DNA from: Thermodesulfovibrionia bacterium
GTDB taxonomy: Bacteria; Nitrospirota; Thermodesulfovibrionia; UBA6902
Reading direction: 5' to 3'
DNA: 64,000 nucleotides
Assembly: GCA_030646035.1 (NCBI GenBank)
Contig: JAUSMY010000030.1
Location: 46,434 to 110,433, forward strand
The position numbers and the translations under genes are program-made. Under the pieces are notes generated by a model. The model saw only the letters and a list, made by a program, of their open reading frames with translations, did not search any database and was not told the DNA's origin. Every line of letters begins with the position of its first letter. Within the stretch, counting starts at the first letter, position 1. Below are positions 2,734 through 61,289 of the stretch, one piece after another.

Positions 2734-4530
2734 ATGCCGGGAGCCAAGAGCAAAAAAGCCGCAATAAAAGATCTCACAATAAGGGTCTGTGTCGGAACAG
2801 GTGGGCTTGCAGCCGGAAGCCAGGAGGTCATAGATACCTTTACTAAAGAGCTGAAGCTAAAAGGTCTGAAGGCTAATGTAGAAAAAAAATGCGTTAACAA
2901 GACAGGCTGCCGCGGCTTCTGCGCCAAAGACGTGCTTGTCGATGTCATAATTGACAACAGCACATCAACATACCAGCTTATAACTCCTGAGATGGTAGCC
3001 GGTATTATTGAAGAGCATATTATCGGCGGCAAGCCTGTTGAGAAGTGGCTGGTCGGCCCTGATTATCACGCCTTCCATGATAAACAGACAAAGATACTTC
3101 TTAAACAGTGCGGCCATATAGACCCCGAGGATATCAATGCTTACATCGGTATAGGCGGATACAAGGGCGCTGAGAAGGCGTTATCATTAACGCCTGACAA
3201 AGTCATAGATGAGGTGAAGAAGTCAGGACTCAGAGGAAGGGGCGGCGCAGGTTTCCCAACTGGCGTCAAGTGGGAGTTCTGCAGCAGGAACGCTGAGAAG
3301 ACAAAATATATTATCTGCAATGCTGACGAGGGCGACCCTGGCGCGTTCATGGACCGCTCTGTAATTGAGGGCAATCCGCATGCTGTTTTAGAAGGCATGA
3401 TCATAGGCGGATACGCCATAGGCGCAAACTTGGGTTATGTATACATTCGCGCAGAATACCCGCTTGCGATCGAAAGGCTCAAGATAGCTATAAAAGAAGC
3501 GGCAAAGAAAGGGTATCTCGGAAAGAATATATTCAAGAGCGGTTTTGATTTCAATATAAAGATAAAGAAGGGCGCAGGCGCTTTCATATGCGGAGAAGAG
3601 ACCGCTCTTATCGCATCAATAGAGGGCGAACGCGGAATGCCTCGCTCAAAACCGCCCTTCCCTGCCAACAAAGGGCTATGGGGCAAGCCTACGATCATTA
3701 ATAATGTTGAGACTCTGGCAAACCTTCCGGCGATAATTACAAGCGGCGCAAAATGGTTCTCATCCATAGGCACAGAAAAGAGCAAGGGCACAAAGGTCTT
3801 CGCTCTTACAGGAAATATAAAGAACTCCGGCCTTATTGAAGTCCCGATGGGGATGCCTCTCAAAGAGATAATTTTTGACATAGGCGGCGGCATGGAGAAG
3901 AAAAACAGGAAGCTCAAAGCTGTGCAGACAGGCGGGCCTTCAGGCGGCTGTATCCCTGCCTCACATATAGATATGCCTGTTGATTATGAATCGCTGATGG
4001 CTATCGGTTCTATGATGGGCTCAGGCGGCATGGTCGTTATGGATGACGCGACCTGCATGGTGGATATGTCAAAGTTCTTCCTCTCATTTACCCAGAGCGA
4101 GTCATGCGGCAAATGCGTGCCATGCAGAGTGGGAACAAAGAGGATGCTTGAGATACTAACAAGGATAACCAATGGCAAAGGTAAAAAAGGCGACATCGAC
4201 CTTCTGCTTGAACTCGGAAAAGATATCAAACTTGCATCACTCTGCGGGCTGGGGCAGTCAGCGCCGAACCCAGTGCTTTCCACCATAAACTTCTTCAGGG
4301 ATGAATATGAAGCTCATATAAACGAAGGCAAATGCCCTGCAGGCGTATGCAAGGCGCTGCGCCAATATGTCGTAAATGCAGAGATCTGCAAGATGTGCGG
4401 CAAATGCTACAGCGCATGTCCTTCAGGATCTATAGCGTGGGAGAAGAAGCAGAAGGCTGTTATAGACAAATCAAAGTGTATAAAGTGCGGCGCGTGTTAT
4501 GAAGCATGCCCGTTCGATTCGATACTATAA
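2734..4530 (+). CDS. NuoF/HoxF-like NAD(H)-binding FMN/[4Fe-4S] flavoprotein subunit with C-terminal 2x[4Fe-4S] ferredoxin domain
   Basis: Motifs GRGGAGFPTGVKW, ICNADEGDPGAF and ESCGKCVPCRVG are present. C-terminal CxxCxxCxxxCP is seen twice (CKMCGKCYSACP, CIKCGACYEACP). Confidence 0.9.
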   Translation: MPGAKSKKAAIKDLTIRVCVGTGGLAAGSQEVIDTFTKELKLKGLKANVEKKCVNKTGCRGFCAKDVLVDVIIDNSTSTYQLITPEMVAGIIEEHIIGGKPVEKWLVGPDYHAFHDKQTKILLKQCGHIDPEDINAYIGIGGYKGAEKALSLTPDKVIDEVKKSGLRGRGGAGFPTGVKWEFCSRNAEKTKYIICNADEGDPGAFMDRSVIEGNPHAVLEGMIIGGYAIGANLGYVYIRAEYPLAIERLKIAIKEAAKKGYLGKNIFKSGFDFNIKIKKGAGAFICGEETALIASIEGERGMPRSKPPFPANKGLWGKPTIINNVETLANLPAIITSGAKWFSSIGTEKSKGTKVFALTGNIKNSGLIEVPMGMPLKEIIFDIGGGMEKKNRKLKAVQTGGPSGGCIPASHIDMPVDYESLMAIGSMMGSGGMVVMDDATCMVDMSKFFLSFTQSESCGKCVPCRVGTKRMLEILTRITNGKGKKGDIDLLLELGKDIKLASLCGLGQSAPNPVLSTINFFRDEYEAHINEGKCPAGVCKALRQYVVNAEICKMCGKCYSACPSGSIAWEKKQKAVIDKSKCIKCGACYEACPFDSIL

Positions 4531-39905: not shown

Positions 39906-41867
39906 TTAATTATCGCCCAGCGTACACGAGCCGGTGATCTTTGCATTGCAATTATTGTTCACATCCGCTGCCCTGAAATCTGAATAGGTTTTGGTACAGA
40001 GAAGAGTAGTGCAGCTGCCGCTACCTGAATAAATCTTCCAGGTAGCTGTCGATCCAACAATTTTTGTGGTGTTCTTCGTCCATGTGTTACAACTGGTTTC
40101 GACATTTATCTTATATTTCTTATTTGAACTTGTACTATTTAATACAGTCACACCGCCGACCGCGCAGATATCTGTAATGCAACTCGGGTCTGCACCATCA
40201 GTCAATCCGTCGCAGTCGTTATCAAGGCCGTCTGCACATGAAGATTCAGGTGATTGCGCAGGAGAACCGGCTGAGCAGGTATCCACCACGCTTCCGCTCT
40301 GGCACTCTATCTGTCCTGTTGAAGCGCATACACCGACCCCGCAGTTCGTTGGTGTCACTACATAACCATCATCAGCAGTGCCGTCACAGTCATCATCTAC
40401 ATTGTCACAGTCGATGTCAGCAGCGCCCGGATTTATGCTTGCATCGTTGTCATTGCAGTCAACGCCTATTATATATCCGTCATGATCGATATCATTGGCT
40501 ACGGCAGGACAGACCCTGTCTACAAACAACGTATAATCAGGCGGGTCAAAGTCAGTAAATTTTATACAGCAATCAGCATTGATGTCAGCAAGAACCGCCT
40601 GGTTGAAGCTTGCGATATTCTGCAGATTATTACATGCCCCGTTTGATGTGGCGAATTGATTTATTACTTCATTCCGGCTGAGCGTCCTGGAACTGCCGTC
40701 GACGGTTATTTCATCCCCTTCTGCAACGTCATAACATAATTCTCCTGTAAGTTGGAAATCATGTTTATTGCCTGTGCTATTCCATACCCTGTACCAGCCC
40801 TCGGTTTCGTCACATACATGTAACCCGGGGGTCGGCCTTATTAACAGGCCAAAAACCTTCTGTGTAAGGTTGTTGTCACCATCCCTTGCATATATGGGAA
40901 GATTGTTAACACCCTCCACATTCGGTGTCCCTGAGATCTCGAGATTTGTACACTGCTGCCATGTCCCGGTTGAAAGGCTGCAGTCAGCAGAAACAGCAAG
41001 ATTTCCGTTGCAAAGATAACTCACTCCGATGGGCAGGAGATCTTTTGTCACACACCATTCATAATCAGGCTCGGTGTCTGAATCCCCGCCGTCTGAAATG
41101 GGTACTCCTCCCTGGGCATATAAGTTTGCAATATATGGAACATTCCAGGTTCCTGAAGGCAGCGAACTGTTTACTATCTTGAACTGATTTGCGAGACAGC
41201 CCGCCTTTATCTTCAATTCATTAAGGTCCATCCACACAACGATATCCTTATATGCCTCAGGCCTGTTCAGGAGGGCAGTATCGTCATCAATTCCAGCTAA
41301 TCCATACTCATATGTCTGGATGGTCGCACTTGCCCCATTCTCATTCTCATTCTCATTCTCATTCTCATTCTCATTCTCATTCTCATTCTCATTCTCATTC
41401 TCATTCTCATTCTCATTCTCATTAATACGTGTCTGCCTATTCATGTTCTCTCCGATGCTGAATATTAGAAATGCTACATTCGAGTTTGGGGTTATATCGG
41501 TAACACATGTTGCATCTTCCCCGCATTCATTAACAACAGTATCGGTCGTGCCTCTTCCGCAGATAGTGCTGTCATCATTGTCAAGGTTGTCATCAGGCCA
41601 ATAGACAAGGGCGTTACCCCATACATCCTTTGGATCCCTTACCAGCCCGGGGAACTCTGAAGCAGTTGGAAGGCGGTCATTTGCCGCTGCAAAACCTATG
41701 ACAGCCTGAACAGCCGCATCTATTTTGTTCTTCGTATCGAGCCGCTTCTCCTTTCCAACCTCCGGCCCTAACTTCATGATGCCATAAGCCAGGAGTATGC
41801 CTATCAATATAATTAACAGAGCCATCTGTATAAGGGCTATACCTTTTGTATTTTTTATAAAATCCAT
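39906..41867 (-). CDS. giant type IV pilin-like protein (653 aa) with (Asn-Glu)14 repeat and C-terminal Cys/Asp-rich repeats
   Basis: The start is at [30 protein letters not shown] (ATG 41867). Paralogous blocks are present ([66 protein letters not shown]). The C-terminus has CxDGxDNDCDG-type repeats ([22 protein letters not shown]). Confidence 0.8.
41337..41423. repeat. perfect hexanucleotide microsatellite (attctc)14, encoding (Asn-Glu)14 on the minus strand
   Basis: 14 uninterrupted units counted at 41337-41420, plus a partial unit. In frame within the 653-aa pilin gene. Confidence 0.95.
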
Positions 41868-55952: not shown

Positions 55953-56551
55953 TAATCCTTGGTTCTCAGATTATACTTATTGATATAGTAATAGACGGAT
56001 GTCCTTCTGAGGCCGAGAAGCTTGGCGGTCTTTGATACATTGTTTCCCGTATTCTCCAGGGCTTCTTGGATGATATGCTTCTTCATGTCCTCTTTAAGGG
56101 TCTCGAAGCCCTCATTGAGGCTCTGCGGGTTTATCTTGATCGACTTTTCTTCAGCCGGTATATCAGTCTGTATATCAGCAAAAAACTCGGCTCTTTTCAG
56201 AGAGTCCACAAGCTTGCCCTCTCCAACCGGTTTCATGAGATAATCGAACGCACCCTGGGATATCGCCTTTACCGCAACATTCCTCTCCTTCTGGCCTGTC
56301 AGAACAACTATCTTCATTCCGGGCTTCTCAGCAAGCATATCATTCAAAAGTTTGAGGCCTACCTCAGGAGTATTCTCATATGGGGGAAGCCCAAGGTCCA
56401 GCAGGACTATATCAATATTATTATCCCGGAAAAAGGCGAGGGCATCTTCAGCAGTATGCGCAAGTACAGACACATATTTTTTCGGCAAAAACCATTTGAG
56501 CTGTGTAGCAAGAGCAACATCATCATCAACAATTAAGATCTTTACAGACAT
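55952..56551 (-). CDS. response regulator: receiver domain plus Fis-type HTH, without a sigma-54 AAA+ module
   Basis: MSVKILIVDDD ... DIVLLDLGLPP ... KIVVLTG, then C-terminal GNNVSKTAKLLGLRRTSVYYYINKY. Only about 200 aa, so there is no room for an AAA+ domain. ATG 56551 has a GAGG SD. Confidence 0.85.
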   Translation of the reverse strand: MSVKILIVDDDVALATQLKWFLPKKYVSVLAHTAEDALAFFRDNNIDIVLLDLGLPPYENTPEVGLKLLNDMLAEKPGMKIVVLTGQKERNVAVKAISQGAFDYLMKPVGEGKLVDSLKRAEFFADIQTDIPAEEKSIKINPQSLNEGFETLKEDMKKHIIQEALENTGNNVSKTAKLLGLRRTSVYYYINKYNLRTKD

Positions 56552-56722
56552 AATAATAACCTCTGGCAAATGAAATGAAATAAAGTTTCATAATTTTACA
56601 TTGTGAGGCCGTAATTTTCAATAATATAAAAATGAACAAGAGATGTGTTAAATGGATTTGATTTAATTAATAGTTGGTTCTAAGATAGAATAATCTTAAT
56701 TAACCGATTCGGCAAACATACT

Positions 56723-56738
56723 GCAGGGCGATTAGCTC
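56723..56738. repeat. 16-bp duplicate of the tRNA-Val 5' end (gcagggcgattagctc)
   Basis: Identical to 57031-57046. Followed by the palindrome cccgacgcgtcggg (56739-56752). Confidence 0.9.
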
Positions 56739-56773
56739 CCCGACGCGTCGGGAAGGTCGTGACATAAAAGCAT

Positions 56774-57043
56774 ATGTTTTACATTTACATCCTCAAAAGT
56801 GAAGTAGATGGCTCGTTCTACACCGGACAGTGCCAAAATATTCAGGAAAGAGTACTTCGACATAATAATGGGTATACAAAATCAACAAAAGCAAAAAGGC
56901 CCTGGCAAATGGTGTATCATGAATCTTACAAAACTCGAAGTGAAGCTATTATCAGAGAGATACAAATAAAGAAGATGAAAAGCCGTAAATACATAAATGA
57001 ACTGATATACAACTTACCCGAAAGACAACCGCAGGGCGATTAG
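56774..57043 (+). CDS. small GIY-YIG nuclease-family protein (89 aa)
   Basis: FYIYILKSEVDGSFYTGQCQNIQERVLRHNNG ... WQMVYHESYKTRSEAIIREIQIKKMKSRKY: GIY...YxG, R, H/N and E core motifs. The last 10 nt, including the TAG stop, overlap the tRNA-Val 5' end. Confidence 0.8.
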   Translation: MFYIYILKSEVDGSFYTGQCQNIQERVLRHNNGYTKSTKAKRPWQMVYHESYKTRSEAIIREIQIKKMKSRKYINELIYNLPERQPQGD

Positions 57044-57108
57044 CTCAGGGGGAGAGCGCTGCCTTCACACGGCAGAGGCCGTAGGTTCGAAACCTACATC
57101 GCCCACCA
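57034..57108 (+). tRNA. tRNA-Val, anticodon CAC, with encoded CCA
   Basis: Manual cloverleaf fold. Acceptor stem GGGCGAT/ATCGCCC; D-arm GCTC-AGGGGGA-GAGC; anticodon arm CTGCC-TTCACAC-GGCAG; variable loop AGGCC; T-arm GTAGG-TTCGAAA-CCTAC; then A-CCA. Confidence 0.9.
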
Positions 57109-57340
57109 TTTACTTTTCCTTCATTGCACGGCAGAGGCCGTCCCGATACCTCGGGACATCGCCCACCATCTTTTTCCTTTTCGCAAGCAGAGGCCGTCCC
57201 GATACCTCGGGACATCGCCCACCATTTACTTTCCCTTCATTGCACGCAGAGGCCGTCCCGATACCTCGGGACATCGCCCACCATCTTTTTCCTTCATTGC
57301 AAGCAGAGGCCGTCCCGATACCTCGGGACATCGCCCAGCA
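57109..57340 (+). repeat. four tandem units of about 56-60 bp, each containing a 38-nt mimic of the tRNA-Val 3' half
   Basis: The core gcagaggccgtcccgatacctcgggacatcgcccacca occurs four times (the last copy ends cccagca). Pyrimidine-rich linkers of two alternating types separate the cores. Unit ends are at 57168, 57224, 57283 and 57340. Confidence 0.9.
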
Positions 57341-57350
57341 TAATTACAGC

Positions 57351-59249
57351 CTAAACAGATACAGACTTCAAGACCGCTTCCAGGATTTCCCAGCGCTTAT
57401 ACGCTTCAGCTATCTCTTCCTCGATCTCTTCTATCCGCGCATTTATCTCAGGTATCCTGTTTCCGTTCTGTTTGTAGAATTCAGGATCAGCGAGTGATTC
57501 ATATAGCTTGACACGTTCTGTTTCCAAAGATTCTATCTGCGCGGGTAATTCCTCGAGTTCCTTCTTCTCCTTGAATGTCATTACACGCGGACGCTCCTGC
57601 TTCTGACGGGACTTCCCCTGCTTTGCGGATTTTTCCTTTTGTTCAGGAGTTGAGAGTTTGCGCTGTCTCAGCCAATCGTCATAGCCGCCAACATATTCTT
57701 CAACCCTTCCATCGCCTTCAAAGACTATTGTGCTCGTTGCGATATTATTGAGGAATTCCCTGTCGTGGCTCACGATAAGGACCGTGCCCTCATACTCCAT
57801 CAGCATCTCCTCAAGAAGTTCCAATGTGTCTGTGTCAAGATCATTGGTAGGCTCGTCCATCACCAATACATTTGAGGGTTTTGTAAAGAGCTTCGCAAGG
57901 AGCGCGCGGTTGCGTTCTCCTCCTGAGAGATACTTCACCTGCGAGCGCGCCCTCTCCGGCGGGAATAGGAAATCGCCAAGATAGCTGATTATGTGCTTAG
58001 ACTTGCCGTTGACCATAACATGGTCGCTTCCCTCTGACACATTCTGCATAACAGAACTCTCATCATCAAGCTGGGCGCGATGCTGGTCAAAATAAGCGAC
58101 ATTGAGATTCGTCCCCCTGCGCACAGAACCGCTGTGCGGCTTCATCTCGCCGAGCAGTATTCGGAGAAGCGTGGTCTTGCCGGAACCGTTGGGGCCGATG
58201 ATGCCGACCTTGTCCCCGCGTATGATGCTCGCGGAAAAATCATTTATCACAGGAACGCCTTCGTATATATGCCCTATGCGCATTGCCTGAAAGACCCGCT
58301 TGCCGGACCGTTCAGCTTCGTTAAGGCTCATCGCAGCACTGCCAACCTCTTCACGCCTTGCGCTGCGCGCGTTTCTCATATCCTTCAAGACCCTCACGCG
58401 TCCTTCGTTGCGCGTGCGCCTTGCCTTGACACCCTGCCGTATCCACGCCTCTTCCTGCGAAAGCTTTTTATCAAAGAGCGCATTGTGCGTTGCCTCTGCA
58501 TCAAGCTCTGCCTGCCTTCTTCTGAGATATGTTGCATAATCGCCGGGCCAATCCGTGACCCGCCCCCGGTCCAGTTCAATGATACGTGTTGCAAGTGTCT
58601 GGAGAAACCTGCGGTCATGCGTTATGAAGAGTATGGAGCCGCGGAAGCCGATGAGAAATTCCTCAAGCCATGCAATAGAGGTTATGTCGAGATGGTTTGT
58701 CGGCTCATCAAGGAGGAGCAGATCCGGCTCATTAACAAGCGCGCGTGCAAGCAGCACTCGCCTTTTATTACCGCCTGAGAGCTCAGACACCTGAGCATCA
58801 GGGTCAAGCCTGAGGCGGGAGATCACGGTCTCTACCCTCTGCTGTATCTGCCATCCGCCTGCAGACTCTATCAGGTGCTGGACACGTTCGAACTCTGCCA
58901 TCAAGCCTGCATCTCCGCCATGCGCGAGCTTCACGCTTATTGAATGGTATTCTGAAAGCAGCTCGACCATATTGCCGAGCCCTGCTGAAACAACGTCGAA
59001 TACCGTTCCAGACAGTTCCTTCGGCACTTCCTGAGAAAGTGAGGCTATCCTCACACCCTGTTCGTATATGACCCCGCCCGCGTCAGGTGTTATCTCGCCG
59101 GTGATGATCTTCATGAGCGTGGACTTGCCTGCCCCGTTCCTTCCGACAAGACAGACCCGCTCATTGCCGCTTATCTGAAGCGTCACCCCGTCGAGCAGTT
59201 CCGGGCCGCCGAAAGAGAGTTTTACATCCTGTAGACTGACCAATGCCAC
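57351..59249 (-). CDS. uup: ABC-F family ATPase (Uup-like) with C-terminal coiled-coil domain
   Basis: Two ABC cassettes (GRNGAGKST / LSGGNKRR / LLLDEPTNHLD and GPNGSGKTT / LSGGERNR / LVMDEPTNDLD). No TM domain. Lys/Glu-rich coiled-coil tail. Confidence 0.85.
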   Translation of the reverse strand: MALVSLQDVKLSFGGPELLDGVTLQISGNERVCLVGRNGAGKSTLMKIITGEITPDAGGVIYEQGVRIASLSQEVPKELSGTVFDVVSAGLGNMVELLSEYHSISVKLAHGGDAGLMAEFERVQHLIESAGGWQIQQRVETVISRLRLDPDAQVSELSGGNKRRVLLARALVNEPDLLLLDEPTNHLDITSIAWLEEFLIGFRGSILFITHDRRFLQTLATRIIELDRGRVTDWPGDYATYLRRRQAELDAEATHNALFDKKLSQEEAWIRQGVKARRTRNEGRVRVLKDMRNARSARREEVGSAAMSLNEAERSGKRVFQAMRIGHIYEGVPVINDFSASIIRGDKVGIIGPNGSGKTTLLRILLGEMKPHSGSVRRGTNLNVAYFDQHRAQLDDESSVMQNVSEGSDHVMVNGKSKHIISYLGDFLFPPERARSQVKYLSGGERNRALLAKLFTKPSNVLVMDEPTNDLDTDTLELLEEMLMEYEGTVLIVSHDREFLNNIATSTIVFEGDGRVEEYVGGYDDWLRQRKLSTPEQKEKSAKQGKSRQKQERPRVMTFKEKKELEELPAQIESLETERVKLYESLADPEFYKQNGNRIPEINARIEEIEEEIAEAYKRWEILEAVLKSVSV

Positions 59250-59310: not shown

Positions 59311-60561
59311 TCAGAGGTTCACAACATGCACAGAACAGGATATGCAGGGATCGTAAGCGCGTATCAGCGTCTCAAGCTCAGGTATTATATCCGCCTTCTC
59401 TTTCAGGAGCGCCTCTGCCATTATGCCAAGCCCCCGCTCCATCTCCGCGAGATTAAGCGCTGTTGGCGTGACTATATCACCTGCTGTGACATAGCCATTA
59501 CTGTCAAAGGTATAAGAGTGAAGCAACAGCCCTCTCGGCGCCTCGATAGCAGCGACTCCCTTACTTGCCTGCGGAATGACATCAACAAGTATTCCTCCAT
59601 CTTCAGGAATGTTCATCTCTAATAATTTATTGATAATGGCTGTCACTTCCTCCAGAAAGATCACTATCTCAAGACCGCGCGCGAGGTTGTTCATATAAAC
59701 CGACCTGTCTTTGGCCACTCCAAGCCTCTCAATGAGATCAGCTGTACGCCCTGTTGGAAGAGAAGGTAAATTCAGCATCCTCGCAAGCGGGCCGACCATG
59801 AAAGGTTCATTCTCAAGGAGCGTATGTTTCGTATATGAAGGAGGCAGTGATGATTCATTTATCCTCTGCCAGAATTCCTCAATTCCCGTCAGCTCTGTAG
59901 CGTTTATTAATACATCGCTTCCGGAATTACCTGCAAGTGAAACCCAATTCTTAACCTGCACAAGTGATGATGACTTCATTGGAGGGATCTGTTTGAGAAA
60001 TTCAGCTACAGCCTCTATCAGAGGTTCGGCCTTATCTTTTATTGCCTTGAGATCTTCACGCGACGGCACAGCGCTCATGCCGCCGACTATTGGAATTATC
60101 TGGTGGATCGCGCGGCCGCCCACAGCCTGCTGTATCTCATTCCCAAGCCCCTTGATCTTAAACCCGAGAGAGACGGTCTCAGGCATATCTGTGGCTAATT
60201 CTACAAAAGAGTTCTTGCCATAATAGTCAGGCAGAGCGAGCATAAAGAGATGAAGCCCGTGGCTCTGAAGCGACTCGCCGTGAAGTAAAAGCTCTCTGAG
60301 GAGTTTTGCCTCTTCACGGACCTTTACTCCGAAGGCAGACTCTATCGCTATGACTGAGACCACCCTGTGGGATGCCGCGCATATTGAGCATATCCTTGAG
60401 ACTATCGTCGGCACATCATTGAAGTGCCTGCCGACTATCAGCTTCTCAAACAATCTCGGCGGAGTGAGCACATCAAGCTTTATAGACTCGAGCTTTCGGC
60501 CTTTTACATTGATCTTTATGTTTGCGTGGCCTTCGATCCTGGCTATCAATTCTTCGCTCAT
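59311..60561 (-). CDS. hydA: [NiFe] hydrogenase large (alpha) subunit, group 3b-like
   Basis: N-terminal RIEGH and RICSICAASH, and C-terminal DPCISCSVH Ni-Fe ligand motifs. 416 aa. Confidence 0.85.
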   Translation of the reverse strand: MSEELIARIEGHANIKINVKGRKLESIKLDVLTPPRLFEKLIVGRHFNDVPTIVSRICSICAASHRVVSVIAIESAFGVKVREEAKLLRELLLHGESLQSHGLHLFMLALPDYYGKNSFVELATDMPETVSLGFKIKGLGNEIQQAVGGRAIHQIIPIVGGMSAVPSREDLKAIKDKAEPLIEAVAEFLKQIPPMKSSSLVQVKNWVSLAGNSGSDVLINATELTGIEEFWQRINESSLPPSYTKHTLLENEPFMVGPLARMLNLPSLPTGRTADLIERLGVAKDRSVYMNNLARGLEIVIFLEEVTAIINKLLEMNIPEDGGILVDVIPQASKGVAAIEAPRGLLLHSYTFDSNGYVTAGDIVTPTALNLAEMERGLGIMAEALLKEKADIIPELETLIRAYDPCISCSVHVVNL

Positions 60562-61289
60562 AGCCCTCGCTCCAGAAAAAGGTCAAACCTCTTCTTTATC
60601 TCATCTTCACTCAAGCCCATCTCCCTGAATATCTCAATGAGTGATTCCTTGTTTGCATCATCATAAAAGCCGAAACATCCGTCGCACGGCCTGCCGAGAG
60701 AAGGCTGCCTCGCACCGCATCCTGCTTTAGTAACAGGGCCGAGACATGCCGAACTTCTGTATCTCAAAAGGCACTCATTGCCCTTCATCTTGCACTCCAT
60801 GCAGACCGAGTATGCAGGCACCTCAGGCAGAACGCCTTTAAGCAGATACCCGAGGCAGTGGAGAAGATACTTCTTCTCGATTGGGCATCCGGGAATGGAG
60901 AAGTCCACAGTGACAATATCCTTCAGCGGCCTTGGGAAGGTTATATCAAAACCTGCACCTGATTCAGGATAGACATCAGTTAACCAGTTCCTTCTATCTT
61001 CAGGCCCGCGCGCTATCACACCGCCTGTGCAAGCGCATGTGCCTATTCCAACAAGCTGTTTAACCTTTTTGCGGAGGGCTTTGAGAAATTCCTCATCCTC
61101 CATAGATGTCACAGCCCCTTCAACAAAGGCTATATCAGGGTCTTTGCCTGTTGACGGCATTGCAACATTCAGATGCACAACCTCTACAAGGTCAAATAGT
61201 TTAAGAATATCCTCGCCGAGATTTGTTATCTCAAGTATGTCGCCTGAGCATGATGTAAGCGAATAAAAGCCTGCCTTTGGTTTTCCCAT
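60558..61289 (-). CDS. hydD: [NiFe] hydrogenase small (delta) subunit, NuoB-fold
   Basis: SCSGD..., GTCACTGG and PGCP Fe-S ligand motifs. ATGA-type overlap with the large-subunit gene. Confidence 0.8.
   Translation of the reverse strand: MGKPKAGFYSLTSCSGDILEITNLGEDILKLFDLVEVVHLNVAMPSTGKDPDIAFVEGAVTSMEDEEFLKALRKKVKQLVGIGTCACTGGVIARGPEDRRNWLTDVYPESGAGFDITFPRPLKDIVTVDFSIPGCPIEKKYLLHCLGYLLKGVLPEVPAYSVCMECKMKGNECLLRYRSSACLGPVTKAGCGARQPSLGRPCDGCFGFYDDANKESLIEIFREMGLSEDEIKKRFDLFLERGL

Follow-up and report, generated by a model that had tools for sequence, protein, structure and literature searches.

What can leave four near-identical copies of the 3′ half of a tRNA gene directly behind the intact gene, each with its T-arm exchanged for a palindromic hairpin? 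This arrangement was noticed in a 64,000-nt stretch of the genome of a Thermodesulfovibrionia bacterium (GenBank assembly GCA_030646035.1, contig JAUSMY010000030.1), which we call the window. The array occupies positions 57109–57340 of the window, just after a tRNA-Val(CAC) gene, and a small gene of the GIY-YIG nuclease type lies on the other side of that tRNA. tRNA genes are classic landing sites of mobile DNA, and fragments of them are usually read as the footprints of integrases. Ordinary attachment-site (att) remnants retain the T-arm, and the original prediction, which called the array unusual for that reason, was right to do so. It offered four explanations: scars of a GIY-YIG element, decoy or att sites for an integrase, terminators or 3′ untranslated region (UTR) elements of the convergent gene, and tRNA-like minihelices. 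The first of these is the best supported, since the same palindrome recurs around homologous GIY-YIG genes and one such module differs from that of the array at 1 of 14 nt. We give a probability of roughly 55% to the following reading: the array consists of four non-functional partial copies of the tRNA-Val 3′ end, which are products, without an open reading frame (ORF), of a family of GIY-YIG elements and were amplified by unequal recombination.

Four units in which a palindrome replaces the T-arm

According to both ARAGORN and Rfam, the window has a single tRNA gene, the intact tRNA-Val(CAC) at 57034–57108 on the plus strand (67.7 bits in Rfam), with its CCA encoded. As had been claimed, four units of 56–60 nt follow directly after the CCA, all on the plus strand. 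Unit 1 (57109–57168, 60 nt) has a linker of type A at 57109–57130 and a core at 57131–57168, with the hairpin at 57140–57157; unit 2 (57169–57224, 56 nt) has linker B at 57169–57186, its core at 57187–57224, and the hairpin at 57196–57213. The same pattern is then repeated in unit 3 (57225–57283, 59 nt; linker A′ at 57225–57245, core at 57246–57283, hairpin at 57255–57272) and unit 4 (57284–57340, 57 nt; linker B′ at 57284–57302, core at 57303–57340, hairpin at 57312–57329). The 38-nt core, GCAGAGGCCGTCCCGATACCTCGGGACATCGCCCACCA, is exact at 57131, 57187, and 57246 and has one mismatch (…CCCAGCA) at 57303; the number of occurrences expected by chance is 0. The claim that the core ends in CCA therefore holds for units 1–3 but not for unit 4, which ends in GCA. 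Tandem Repeats Finder reported a period of 57 nt with 4.2 copies (88%) and a period of 116 nt with 2.1 copies (95%), and the longer period confirms the proposed A-B-A-B alternation of the linkers. The core and the 18-nt hairpin have no further copies in the window, and neither ARAGORN nor Rfam reports a tRNA or a tRNA pseudogene within 57109–57340.

The core is laid out as GCAGAGGCC-GTCCCGA-TACC-TCGGGAC-ATCGCCC-A-CCA, and two separate parts of it match the tRNA. On the 5′ side of the hairpin, the match is 15 nt long in unit 1 and 11 nt long in units 2–4, and it runs through the first two bases of the T-stem. On the 3′ side, it extends for 13 nt (10 nt in unit 4) from the last two bases of the T-stem to the CCA. 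Each unit thus covers tRNA positions ~35/39–49 and 63–76, with a possible start at ~30. Between these stretches, and in agreement with the claim of a replaced T-arm, 13 nt of the T-arm (aggttcgaaacct) are swapped for 14 nt (cccgatacctcggg) in all four units; the replacement can also be written as CCCGATACCTCGGG. The centre of the T-arm has become the palindrome CCCGA-TACC-TCGGG. No unit has a 5′ acceptor strand, a D-arm, or a T-loop. Across the window, CCCGA-N4-TCGGG occurs five times (0.01 expected), and each copy adjoins tRNA-Val fragments: four are in the units, and the fifth, at 56739–56752, abuts an orphan 5′ fragment of the tRNA. The resemblance between the unit hairpin and this last palindrome had been pointed out, and it comes down to the same motif.

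All of the unit boundaries are formed by an 11-nt direct repeat, ATCGCCCACCA. Because the start of linker A (TTTACTTT) is identical to the 3′ flank of tRNA-Val in a relative (locus L169), the linker may well be the former 3′ flank of the tRNA-Val gene, as this match suggests. An alignment by eye (CCTTCA-ttg-CACGGCAG in the linkers versus CCTTCA-CACGGCAG in the tRNA) gives a weak hint that the linkers might also retain a remnant of the anticodon stem and loop. Counting from the sequence, there have been about 5 changes in 41 nt of linker since the 116-nt duplication, as compared to 1 in 76 nt of core. The cores were protected: they stayed identical while the linkers diverged.

The array in an independent assembly and in a related strain

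The source sample is a groundwater metagenome, and we cross-checked the array in Logan's independent assembly of the same run. A unitig with 35 nt of the core has a k-mer depth of 190, as compared to 43.8 and 43.2 for the flanking contigs, which corresponds to ~4.4 copies. In this assembly of the source run, the core unitig has no loose ends leading into other contexts, and the flanking contigs stop within units 1 and 4. Because the core is ~4.4 times as deep as its flanks and has no other context, the four-copy assembly is supported and a dispersed repeat is excluded. Two doubts had been raised along with the original prediction, and neither was borne out. Assembly error is ruled out by the depth for about four copies in the independent assembly. 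A dispersed, genome-wide repeat of the repetitive extragenic palindrome (REP) type is ruled out by searches of the window with the core, the 18-mer, and the 14-nt motif, together with the k-mer depth and the lack of other flanks in the source run.

A related strain, which is ~88% identical, with ~86–91% identity in the flanks, keeps the GIY-YIG gene and the orphan tRNA fragment, and its tRNA CCA is joined straight to TAATTACAG. This array-less junction was seen in contigs of two runs (X3 and X4). It is not a collapse of the k = 31 graph, because the T-arm and the unit hairpin differ. The related strain genuinely lacks the array, which is polymorphic between strains. The variation in unit number that had been suggested was seen as four (X1) versus none (X3 and X4), although the Logan contigs cannot resolve intermediate numbers. 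In 10 other runs, the tRNA-Val genes have different 3′ flanks and no units.

The palindrome accompanies homologous GIY-YIG genes

We used protein similarity alone to retrieve nine loci with homologues of the GIY-YIG protein (52–91% identical), which gives ten independent loci with the window. All ten are at tRNA genes or tRNA fragments (Val-CAC, Ala-GGC, or Ser-GGA). Eight of the ten have exact CCCGA-N4-7-TCGGG modules, and the other two have decayed versions. Exact modules number 19 in the 9.8 kb that lie no more than 450 nt from the ORFs and just one in the other 81 kb of these loci, an enrichment of ~150-fold. Judging from these ten loci, the motif marks the partial tRNA copies that accompany small GIY-YIG genes of the UPF0213 type in tRNA genes.

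The recurrent layout is tRNA positions 1–26, a module in the place of the anticodon arm, AGGTCG, a spacer of ~13 nt, the ORF, and the intact tRNA. There are variations on this order. In Flavobacterium ginsenosidimutans (L173), two tandem 5′ copies that are cut in the T-loop are followed by tRNA-Ala, the ORF, and a 3′ copy whose anticodon arm is replaced. L177 has modules on both sides, one of which replaces the 5′ half of the T-arm, and T-arm-side modules adjoin the GIY-YIG genes in both L091 and L177. The 91%-identical relative (L168) has two upstream modules, and the first of these, CCCGATACTTCGGG, is identical to the array module at 13 of 14 positions, loop included. The lone upstream module of the window looks like the result of a deletion between two modules such as those in L168.

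The modules also indicate where the partial copies came from. In L169, by our own alignment, the hairpin of the pseudo-copy is identical at 13 of 17 positions to the real anticodon arm of the L169 tRNA (TCCCG-TTCACAC-CGGGA), and its loop, CACA, preserves the anticodon. The modules of the Val elements match this L169 arm (TCCCG/CGGGA) and not the local CTGCC/GGCAG stem. Because the Val modules are of a foreign type in hosts with the CTGCC/GGCAG stem, the pseudo-copy travels with the element; by its stem, it is identified as element-borne.

The window's own GIY-YIG gene (56774–57043, plus strand) encodes a single-domain protein of 89 amino acids of the UPF0213 type (Pfam PF01541, E = 5e-15; PDB 1ywl and 1zg2). 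The catalytic residues Y5, Y16, G18, R26, H30, and E62 are invariant in 11 homologues, and the protein has no match to a defence system in PADLOC. The TAG stop codon of the ORF is formed by bases 8–10 of tRNA-Val. The gene is bracketed by a 16-nt direct repeat, gcagggcgattagctc, at 56723–56738 and 57031–57046. The left copy of this repeat (plus strand) is the orphan 5′ fragment, which consists of gca and tRNA-Val positions 1–13. It continues into CCCGACGCGTCGGG and then AAGGTCG, and the ATG is 14 nt further on. The palindromic module that caps the orphan fragment (CCCGA-CGCG-TCGGG, 56739–56752, plus strand) is in a homologous position in L168, L170, and L175, and in relatives the homologous module occupies the place of the anticodon arm. 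By comparison with L168, L169, L170, L172, L175, and L176, the aaggtcg at 56753–56759 (plus strand) appears to be a variable-loop remnant (AGGTC and the first base of the T-stem) of an element-type pseudo-tRNA; the variable loop of the local tRNA-Val is AGGCC instead of AGGTC. A consensus scan also identified a promoter-like site, TTAATA-16-AATAAT, at 56667–56694 (plus strand), ~30 nt upstream of the orphan fragment. This may be the original promoter of the tRNA, which would now serve the orphan fragment, the GIY-YIG gene, and the tRNA.

An occupied and an empty site

Two loci with tRNA-Glu genes differ by the presence of such an insert. The flanks of L155 (minus strand, oriented positions 2612–2961) and L138 (3280–3352) are 100% identical. 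L155 has an additional 280 nt, with a GIY-YIG ORF (83 amino acids, 40% identical to the window's), and a second copy of tRNA-Glu positions 1–35. After the left tRNA-Glu copy, a hairpin breaks up the anticodon loop and is followed by positions 36–41, and the ORF enters the right copy and stops at a TAA in its D-loop. On this alignment, L155 and L138 are a clean pair of occupied and empty sites, which shows mobility. The geometry is the one expected if the tRNA gene crossed over once, outward of the hairpin, with a tRNA-like sequence carried by the element. In both loci, a second and more distant GIY-YIG gene is found just downstream of the same tRNA-Glu.

Hairpin units beside other tRNA genes

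We also searched for the hairpin without regard to nearby genes. An exact scan for the 18-mer across 185,579 species genomes (one genome per species, 596 Gb) found 44 loci, as compared to ~17 expected by our own estimate. Most of these are in the variable arms of tRNA-Ser, REP-like repeats, terminators, or coding DNA. None of the 44 has the window's core, and none has a homologue of the GIY-YIG gene within the 8 kb examined. Because most of these loci are unrelated, the hairpin alone is not diagnostic. The only true analogue among them is L010, from the metagenome-assembled genome (MAG) of a member of the Clostridia, and it is a mirror image of the array: two 120-nt units lie upstream of tRNA-Val(UAC), and each has tRNA positions 1–46, GTCCCGAGGTATCGGGAC for the T-arm, and the acceptor-like TACGCCG.

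The long variable arm of tRNA-Ser(UGA/CGA) is formed by the exact 18-mer GTCCCGATACCTCGGGAC, its loop and orientation as in the window, in L009, L018, L023, L034, and L042, which are from several Bacteroidales MAGs and one Hyphomicrobiales MAG. This may be a chance match in a scan of 596 Gb, or it may hint at the origin of the hairpin.

In metagenomes, the pattern GGYC-GTCCCGA-N4-TCGGGAC matched at least 120 loci. Among the matches listed, many are plain terminators or nested REP-like palindromes, and ~15 loci combine a variable loop, GTCCCGA-N4-TCGGGAC, and the 3′ acceptor strand that belongs to the local tRNA; the hairpin loop differs from one to the next. Such units follow tRNA-Val(GAC) (L089, a single unit that also ends in GCA), tRNA-Ile in an rRNA operon (L080/L105), tRNA-Met (L067 and L121), and tRNA-Thr (L134); they follow tRNA-Asn in L070, L137, and L156, and L142 is a further tRNA-Asn case; and L077, L085, and L164 have orphan units. 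Across unrelated genomes and metagenomes, an arm is exchanged for the hairpin next to tRNA genes for Val, Ile, Met, Asn, Thr, Ala, and Ser. In L156, L070, L067, and L091, there is a near-complete second copy of the tRNA in which the anticodon arm and the T-arm are both replaced.

In two cases, an intact tRNA and a T-arm-substituted 3′ copy bracket a small island. The island at tRNA-fMet in L121 has an ORF of 214 amino acids with no Pfam match, and the one at tRNA-Asn in L137 has a VapB/PIN pair. In L010 (6004–6734, minus strand), a zeta-toxin-family gene and an ORF of 50 amino acids lie directly upstream of the two tRNA-Val units. Toxin-antitoxin cargo such as that of L010 and L137 may be typical of mini-islands.

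The scan brought up other structures as well. A family of nested palindromes that resemble REPs or miniature inverted-repeat transposable elements (MITEs) has GTCCCGA-N4-TCGGGAC as its inner stem (L057, L060, L061, L064, L093, L125, L130, L139, L140, L144, L147, and L163); its outer palindromes are gtcattctgag … ctcagaatgac and gattgccac … ctcgcaatgac. In L093 (minus strand, oriented positions ~3180–3340), a long hairpin, tcccgcacctttt … aaaaggtgcggga, apparently holds a complete tRNA-Thr(UGU) in its loop. This hairpin is at the anticodon-arm position of an outer tRNA-like sequence, and a GIY-YIG gene lies between it and tRNA-Tyr. In L134 (1500–2420), a tRNA-Thr(GGU)-like gene is split in its anticodon loop by ~200 nt that may be an intron; after tRNA-Thr(UGU) and tRNA-Tyr, this cluster also has several partial 3′ copies of tRNAs whose T-arms are ordinary.

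How the array may have formed

Part of each element resembles a tRNA, except that a stable hairpin stands in for a loop-bearing arm, be it the anticodon arm, the T-arm, or sometimes the D-loop. To integrate, an element would undergo a single Campbell-type crossover in the part that is homologous to the tRNA, outward of the hairpin, and the outcome would be an intact tRNA and a partial copy with a hairpin. For the array, recombination between the tRNA 3′ end and an element module would have produced a founding unit of the type that is seen singly in L089 and L080. This unit would have been placed after the CCA and built from the local tRNA sequence and the palindrome of the element. Amplification to four would then have occurred by unequal recombination between the 11-nt ATCGCCCACCA repeats, probably with two units that diverged first and the 116-nt duplication second, and nuclease-induced breaks in the tRNA gene perhaps stimulated it. 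The exchange of an arm for a hairpin would delete a conserved loop sequence, and with it the copy would lose both any use as a tRNA and its sensitivity to whatever recognises the loop; the exchange would also shorten the uninterrupted homology to the real tRNA gene. What the palindrome does, and which enzyme takes part, we infer.

A broader proposal is possible, and we hold it tentatively and at less than even odds. Single-domain GIY-YIG genes of the UPF0213 type, whose products have so far passed as uncharacterised proteins of a housekeeping appearance, may be the core of undescribed selfish elements of ~0.3 kb that home into bacterial tRNA genes. Their homology arm would be a pseudo-tRNA in which the palindrome TCCCGA-N4-TCGGGA acts as a nuclease-resistant stand-in or as a recognition site for the enzyme, and arrays would be non-autonomous, MITE-like derivatives that are made or amplified by nuclease-induced breaks.

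Several observations weigh against the reading of the array as products of GIY-YIG elements. No enzyme activity, excision product, or circular form has been seen. The 89-amino-acid protein has one domain only and lacks a DNA-binding domain. In the DNA examined around the single units of L089 and L080/L105, there is no GIY-YIG gene. Ordinary terminators, REP-like elements, and the variable arms of tRNA-Ser have the GTCCCGA/TCGGGAC stem as well. A unit of 57 nt is too small to integrate as a double-stranded circle, so a further step of amplification is needed to arrive at four. Both loops are still present in the real tRNA in cis, so simple "self-immunity" is not a full explanation. The identity of the cores could reflect selection on an RNA instead of gene conversion. 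Finally, the array-less strain could have lost the array, as a deletion between the ATCGCCCACCA repeats gives the same junction.

Two other origins were considered, and neither is supported. An RNA intermediate is suggested by the CCA in the units, but the array-less relative also encodes its CCA, and the presence of CCA in hairpin copies elsewhere is inconsistent. A fold-back or quasi-palindrome origin from the local T-arm does not account for the module, which shares only CGA..ACCT with that arm; elsewhere, the same stem is found beside quite different T-arms.

Alternative explanations

The array might instead be an accretion of attR-type remnants, left by an element with a tyrosine or serine integrase and a hairpin in its attP; the copies would have accumulated in tandem, the cargo would have been lost, and the GIY-YIG gene would be no more than the cargo of another event nearby. 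Integration commonly leaves partial tRNA copies (PMC9897764), T-arm-substituted 3′ copies beside intact tRNAs delimit the islands of L121 and L137, and in L180 an integrase-like ORF adjoins a tRNA-Ala fragment. In their geometry, the proposed att or decoy sites are therefore compatible with these islands. No integrase is near: the ~3 kb upstream of the array and the 10 kb downstream contain none, and neither does the L121 or the L137 island. The att repeats of integrases are contiguous tRNA segments that include the T-arm, whereas here the arm is swapped, and the linkers, at 18–22 nt and homologous to each other, indicate duplication and not serial integrations. Furthermore, a search of 2.9 million viral contigs matched only coding or unrelated DNA and no attP-like tRNA mimic with the hairpin. 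We consider this account to be unlikely, but it is the strongest competitor. A functional RNA comes after it and is also improbable. The units would form a structured 3′ trailer that is co-transcribed with tRNA-Val, and they would act as decoys (with the acceptor 3′ strand and CCA), as competitors for the 5′ acceptor strand that regulate tRNA-Val maturation, or as a repeated antidote to the neighbouring nuclease. The perfect conservation of the cores beside drifting linkers would fit, as would the invariant stems and free loops across lineages, the lack of a terminator between the tRNA and the array, and the E. coli tyrT/rtT precedent for tandem repeats after a tRNA that yield RNA. Each unit is predicted to fold into a stable hairpin (-16.1 kcal/mol, z = -3.2), and in the predicted structure of the read-through transcript, the tRNA 5′ acceptor strand can pair equally well with its own partner or with the AUCGCCC of any unit, as the original prediction had thought worth examining. 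Nevertheless, the array sequence was matched in no RNA run, and the stem is conserved in sequence and does not covary, so there is no sign of selection on RNA pairing. In a scan against Rfam 15 (gathering thresholds and E ≤ 5), only tRNA reached threshold, and the best other score was 14.7 bits, as compared to a gathering score of 44; an Rfam family is thereby ruled out. The array is absent from a close relative and from the 10 other runs. Also, modules are found upstream of genes, in partial 5′ copies, and at the borders of islands, which DNA rearrangement fits better. The more specific idea of tRNA-like minihelices is not supported as it was stated, because the units lack the 5′ acceptor strand and the predicted fold of a unit is only the 7-bp hairpin with a 3-bp extension.

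Two simpler accounts would need no element. A tRNA trailer that happened to contain a hairpin could have been duplicated by replication slippage, with its likeness to the palindrome a coincidence of GC-rich stems. Tandem repeats of ~57 nt expand and contract easily, and GTCCCGA/TCGGGAC is indeed found in unrelated terminators and REP-like repeats. Slippage does not explain why two separate exact tRNA stretches flank the hairpin at the boundaries of the arm, why the same construction is found with other tRNAs at ~15 independent loci among the matches listed, why the motif is enriched ~150-fold around GIY-YIG genes, or why the array module shares 13 of 14 nt with an upstream module of L168; we consider it to be very unlikely. 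Least credible of all is that the units are intrinsic terminators or 3′ UTR structures for tRNA-Val or the convergent ABC-F gene, or else an assembly artefact. The array does fill the whole 242-nt gap between these convergent genes. But a consensus scan of 56400–57500 found 0 terminator-like sites on either strand, and the stems are followed by ATCGCCC (plus strand) or GGCCTCT (minus strand), with no T-run on either strand, which speaks against the claim that these are terminators or 3′ UTR elements of the ABC-F gene. The k-mer depth for about four copies in the independent assembly argues against an artefact.

Other features of the window

The convergent neighbour is an ABC-F (Uup-like) gene at 57351–59249 on the minus strand (from the ORF list and Pfam). 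It is outside of the array, and its stop codon is 10 nt beyond it. Just past the ABC-F gene, there is a cluster for the large and small subunits of a NiFe-hydrogenase with ferredoxin- and FAD-binding partners (59311–61289, minus strand; also in L001). Genes for a Fis-type response regulator and a sensor kinase are upstream of tRNA-Val. Further away, the window has a perfect hexanucleotide microsatellite, (CATTCT) × 14.7, at 41336–41423, and a 165-nt tandem repeat (2.2 copies, 75% matches) at 1043–1404, which is probably within a coding region.

Implications

Full-text literature searches found no description of tRNA fragments whose arms are substituted by one conserved palindrome, of UPF0213 genes as tRNA-associated elements, or of 0.3-kb insertions with tRNA duplications. 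The chance that the array belongs to an undescribed class of miniature elements that invade tRNA genes is substantial. The stereotyped exchange of an arm for the palindrome, its recurrence across phyla, and its travel with a tiny nuclease gene point to a different kind of invasion, one that the tRNA gene survives. If this is true, then the widespread UPF0213/YhbQ-like GIY-YIG family would gain a role, and the elements would be among the smallest gene-carrying mobile units known (for example, an insert of 280 nt with a duplication of 35 nt). On the practical side, the hairpin units disrupt assembly from short reads, and annotation can mistake them for tRNA pseudogenes.

Comparison with known systems

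Partial tRNA copies that arise from the integration of mobile elements are well known (PMC9897764), and those at attL and attR go back to Reiter 1989 and Williams 2002, as cited there. The array is similar to such att remnants in that an intact tRNA has partial copies of itself nearby (with exact matches of 11–15 nt and 10–13 nt on the two sides of the hairpin), in that a copy and the tRNA bracket an island in L121 and L137, and in that presence varies between strains. Unlike att remnants, which are a contiguous segment of the tRNA, the units have one fixed palindrome where the centre of the T-arm should be. The four copies are just 18–22 nt apart, and there is no integrase; the neighbours are response regulator, sensor kinase, ABC-F, and hydrogenase genes. 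Also, the wider family of hairpin copies duplicates 5′ parts of tRNAs as often as 3′ parts.

In the E. coli tyrT operon, tandem 178-bp repeats (rtT) follow tRNA-Tyr, and each ends with the 3′-terminal nucleotides of the tRNA; Rfam includes them as RtT. Like the array, these are tandem repeats directly 3′ of a tRNA with a copy of its 3′ end in each. The units described here are three times shorter, include a substituted T-arm and the 3′ strand of the anticodon stem, and have no match in Rfam. The palindrome itself resembles those of REP, BIME, and REPIN elements, as it is short and GC-rich with a conserved stem and a free loop, and the stem is found in REP-like mosaics in other metagenomes. It differs from them in that it is not dispersed and replaces tRNA arms at the boundaries of the arms. 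The repeats of type III toxin-antitoxin systems (ToxI-like) are expected upstream of an endoribonuclease gene in the same orientation, whereas here the array is followed by the convergent ABC-F gene.

In fungal mitochondria, free-standing homing-endonuclease genes carry a replacement for a piece of the gene that they invade, and the displaced piece is left as a remnant. As in the loci described here, a nuclease gene sits in a conserved gene, part of that gene is duplicated, and function is kept (compare PMC7315562). The mitochondrial cases differ in that the targets are protein-coding genes, the setting is organellar, and no substitution by a hairpin has been described.

The other nuclease to compare is SegB, a free-standing GIY-YIG homing endonuclease from the tRNA gene cluster of phages T4 and T6 (PMC2330249; PMC13096335). 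SegB is statistically associated with tRNA genes and cuts within them at RAWTSGAAC, the complement of the T-loop, and it drives recombination-dependent tandem amplification through microhomology between the tRNA 5′ end and its own 3′ end (PMC13096335). SegB has a C-terminal DNA-binding domain, whereas the 89-amino-acid protein has the catalytic domain only. The repeat units of SegB consist of the whole tRNA and a truncated segB, as compared to units of 56–60 nt with neither the tRNA nor the ORF. And SegB is a phage system, while the locus described here is chromosomal. In both systems, a GIY-YIG gene adjoins a tRNA gene (here, the 3′ end of the ORF overlaps the 5′ end of the tRNA, and tandem repeats flank the tRNA), and in both, the tandem units are bounded by short homology (here, the 11-nt ATCGCCCACCA). 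The precedent of SegB makes a GIY-YIG nuclease a credible driver of the array. If the array did arise in this way, then it would connect a chromosomal case with a phage enzyme that cuts tRNA genes and amplifies the neighbouring DNA.

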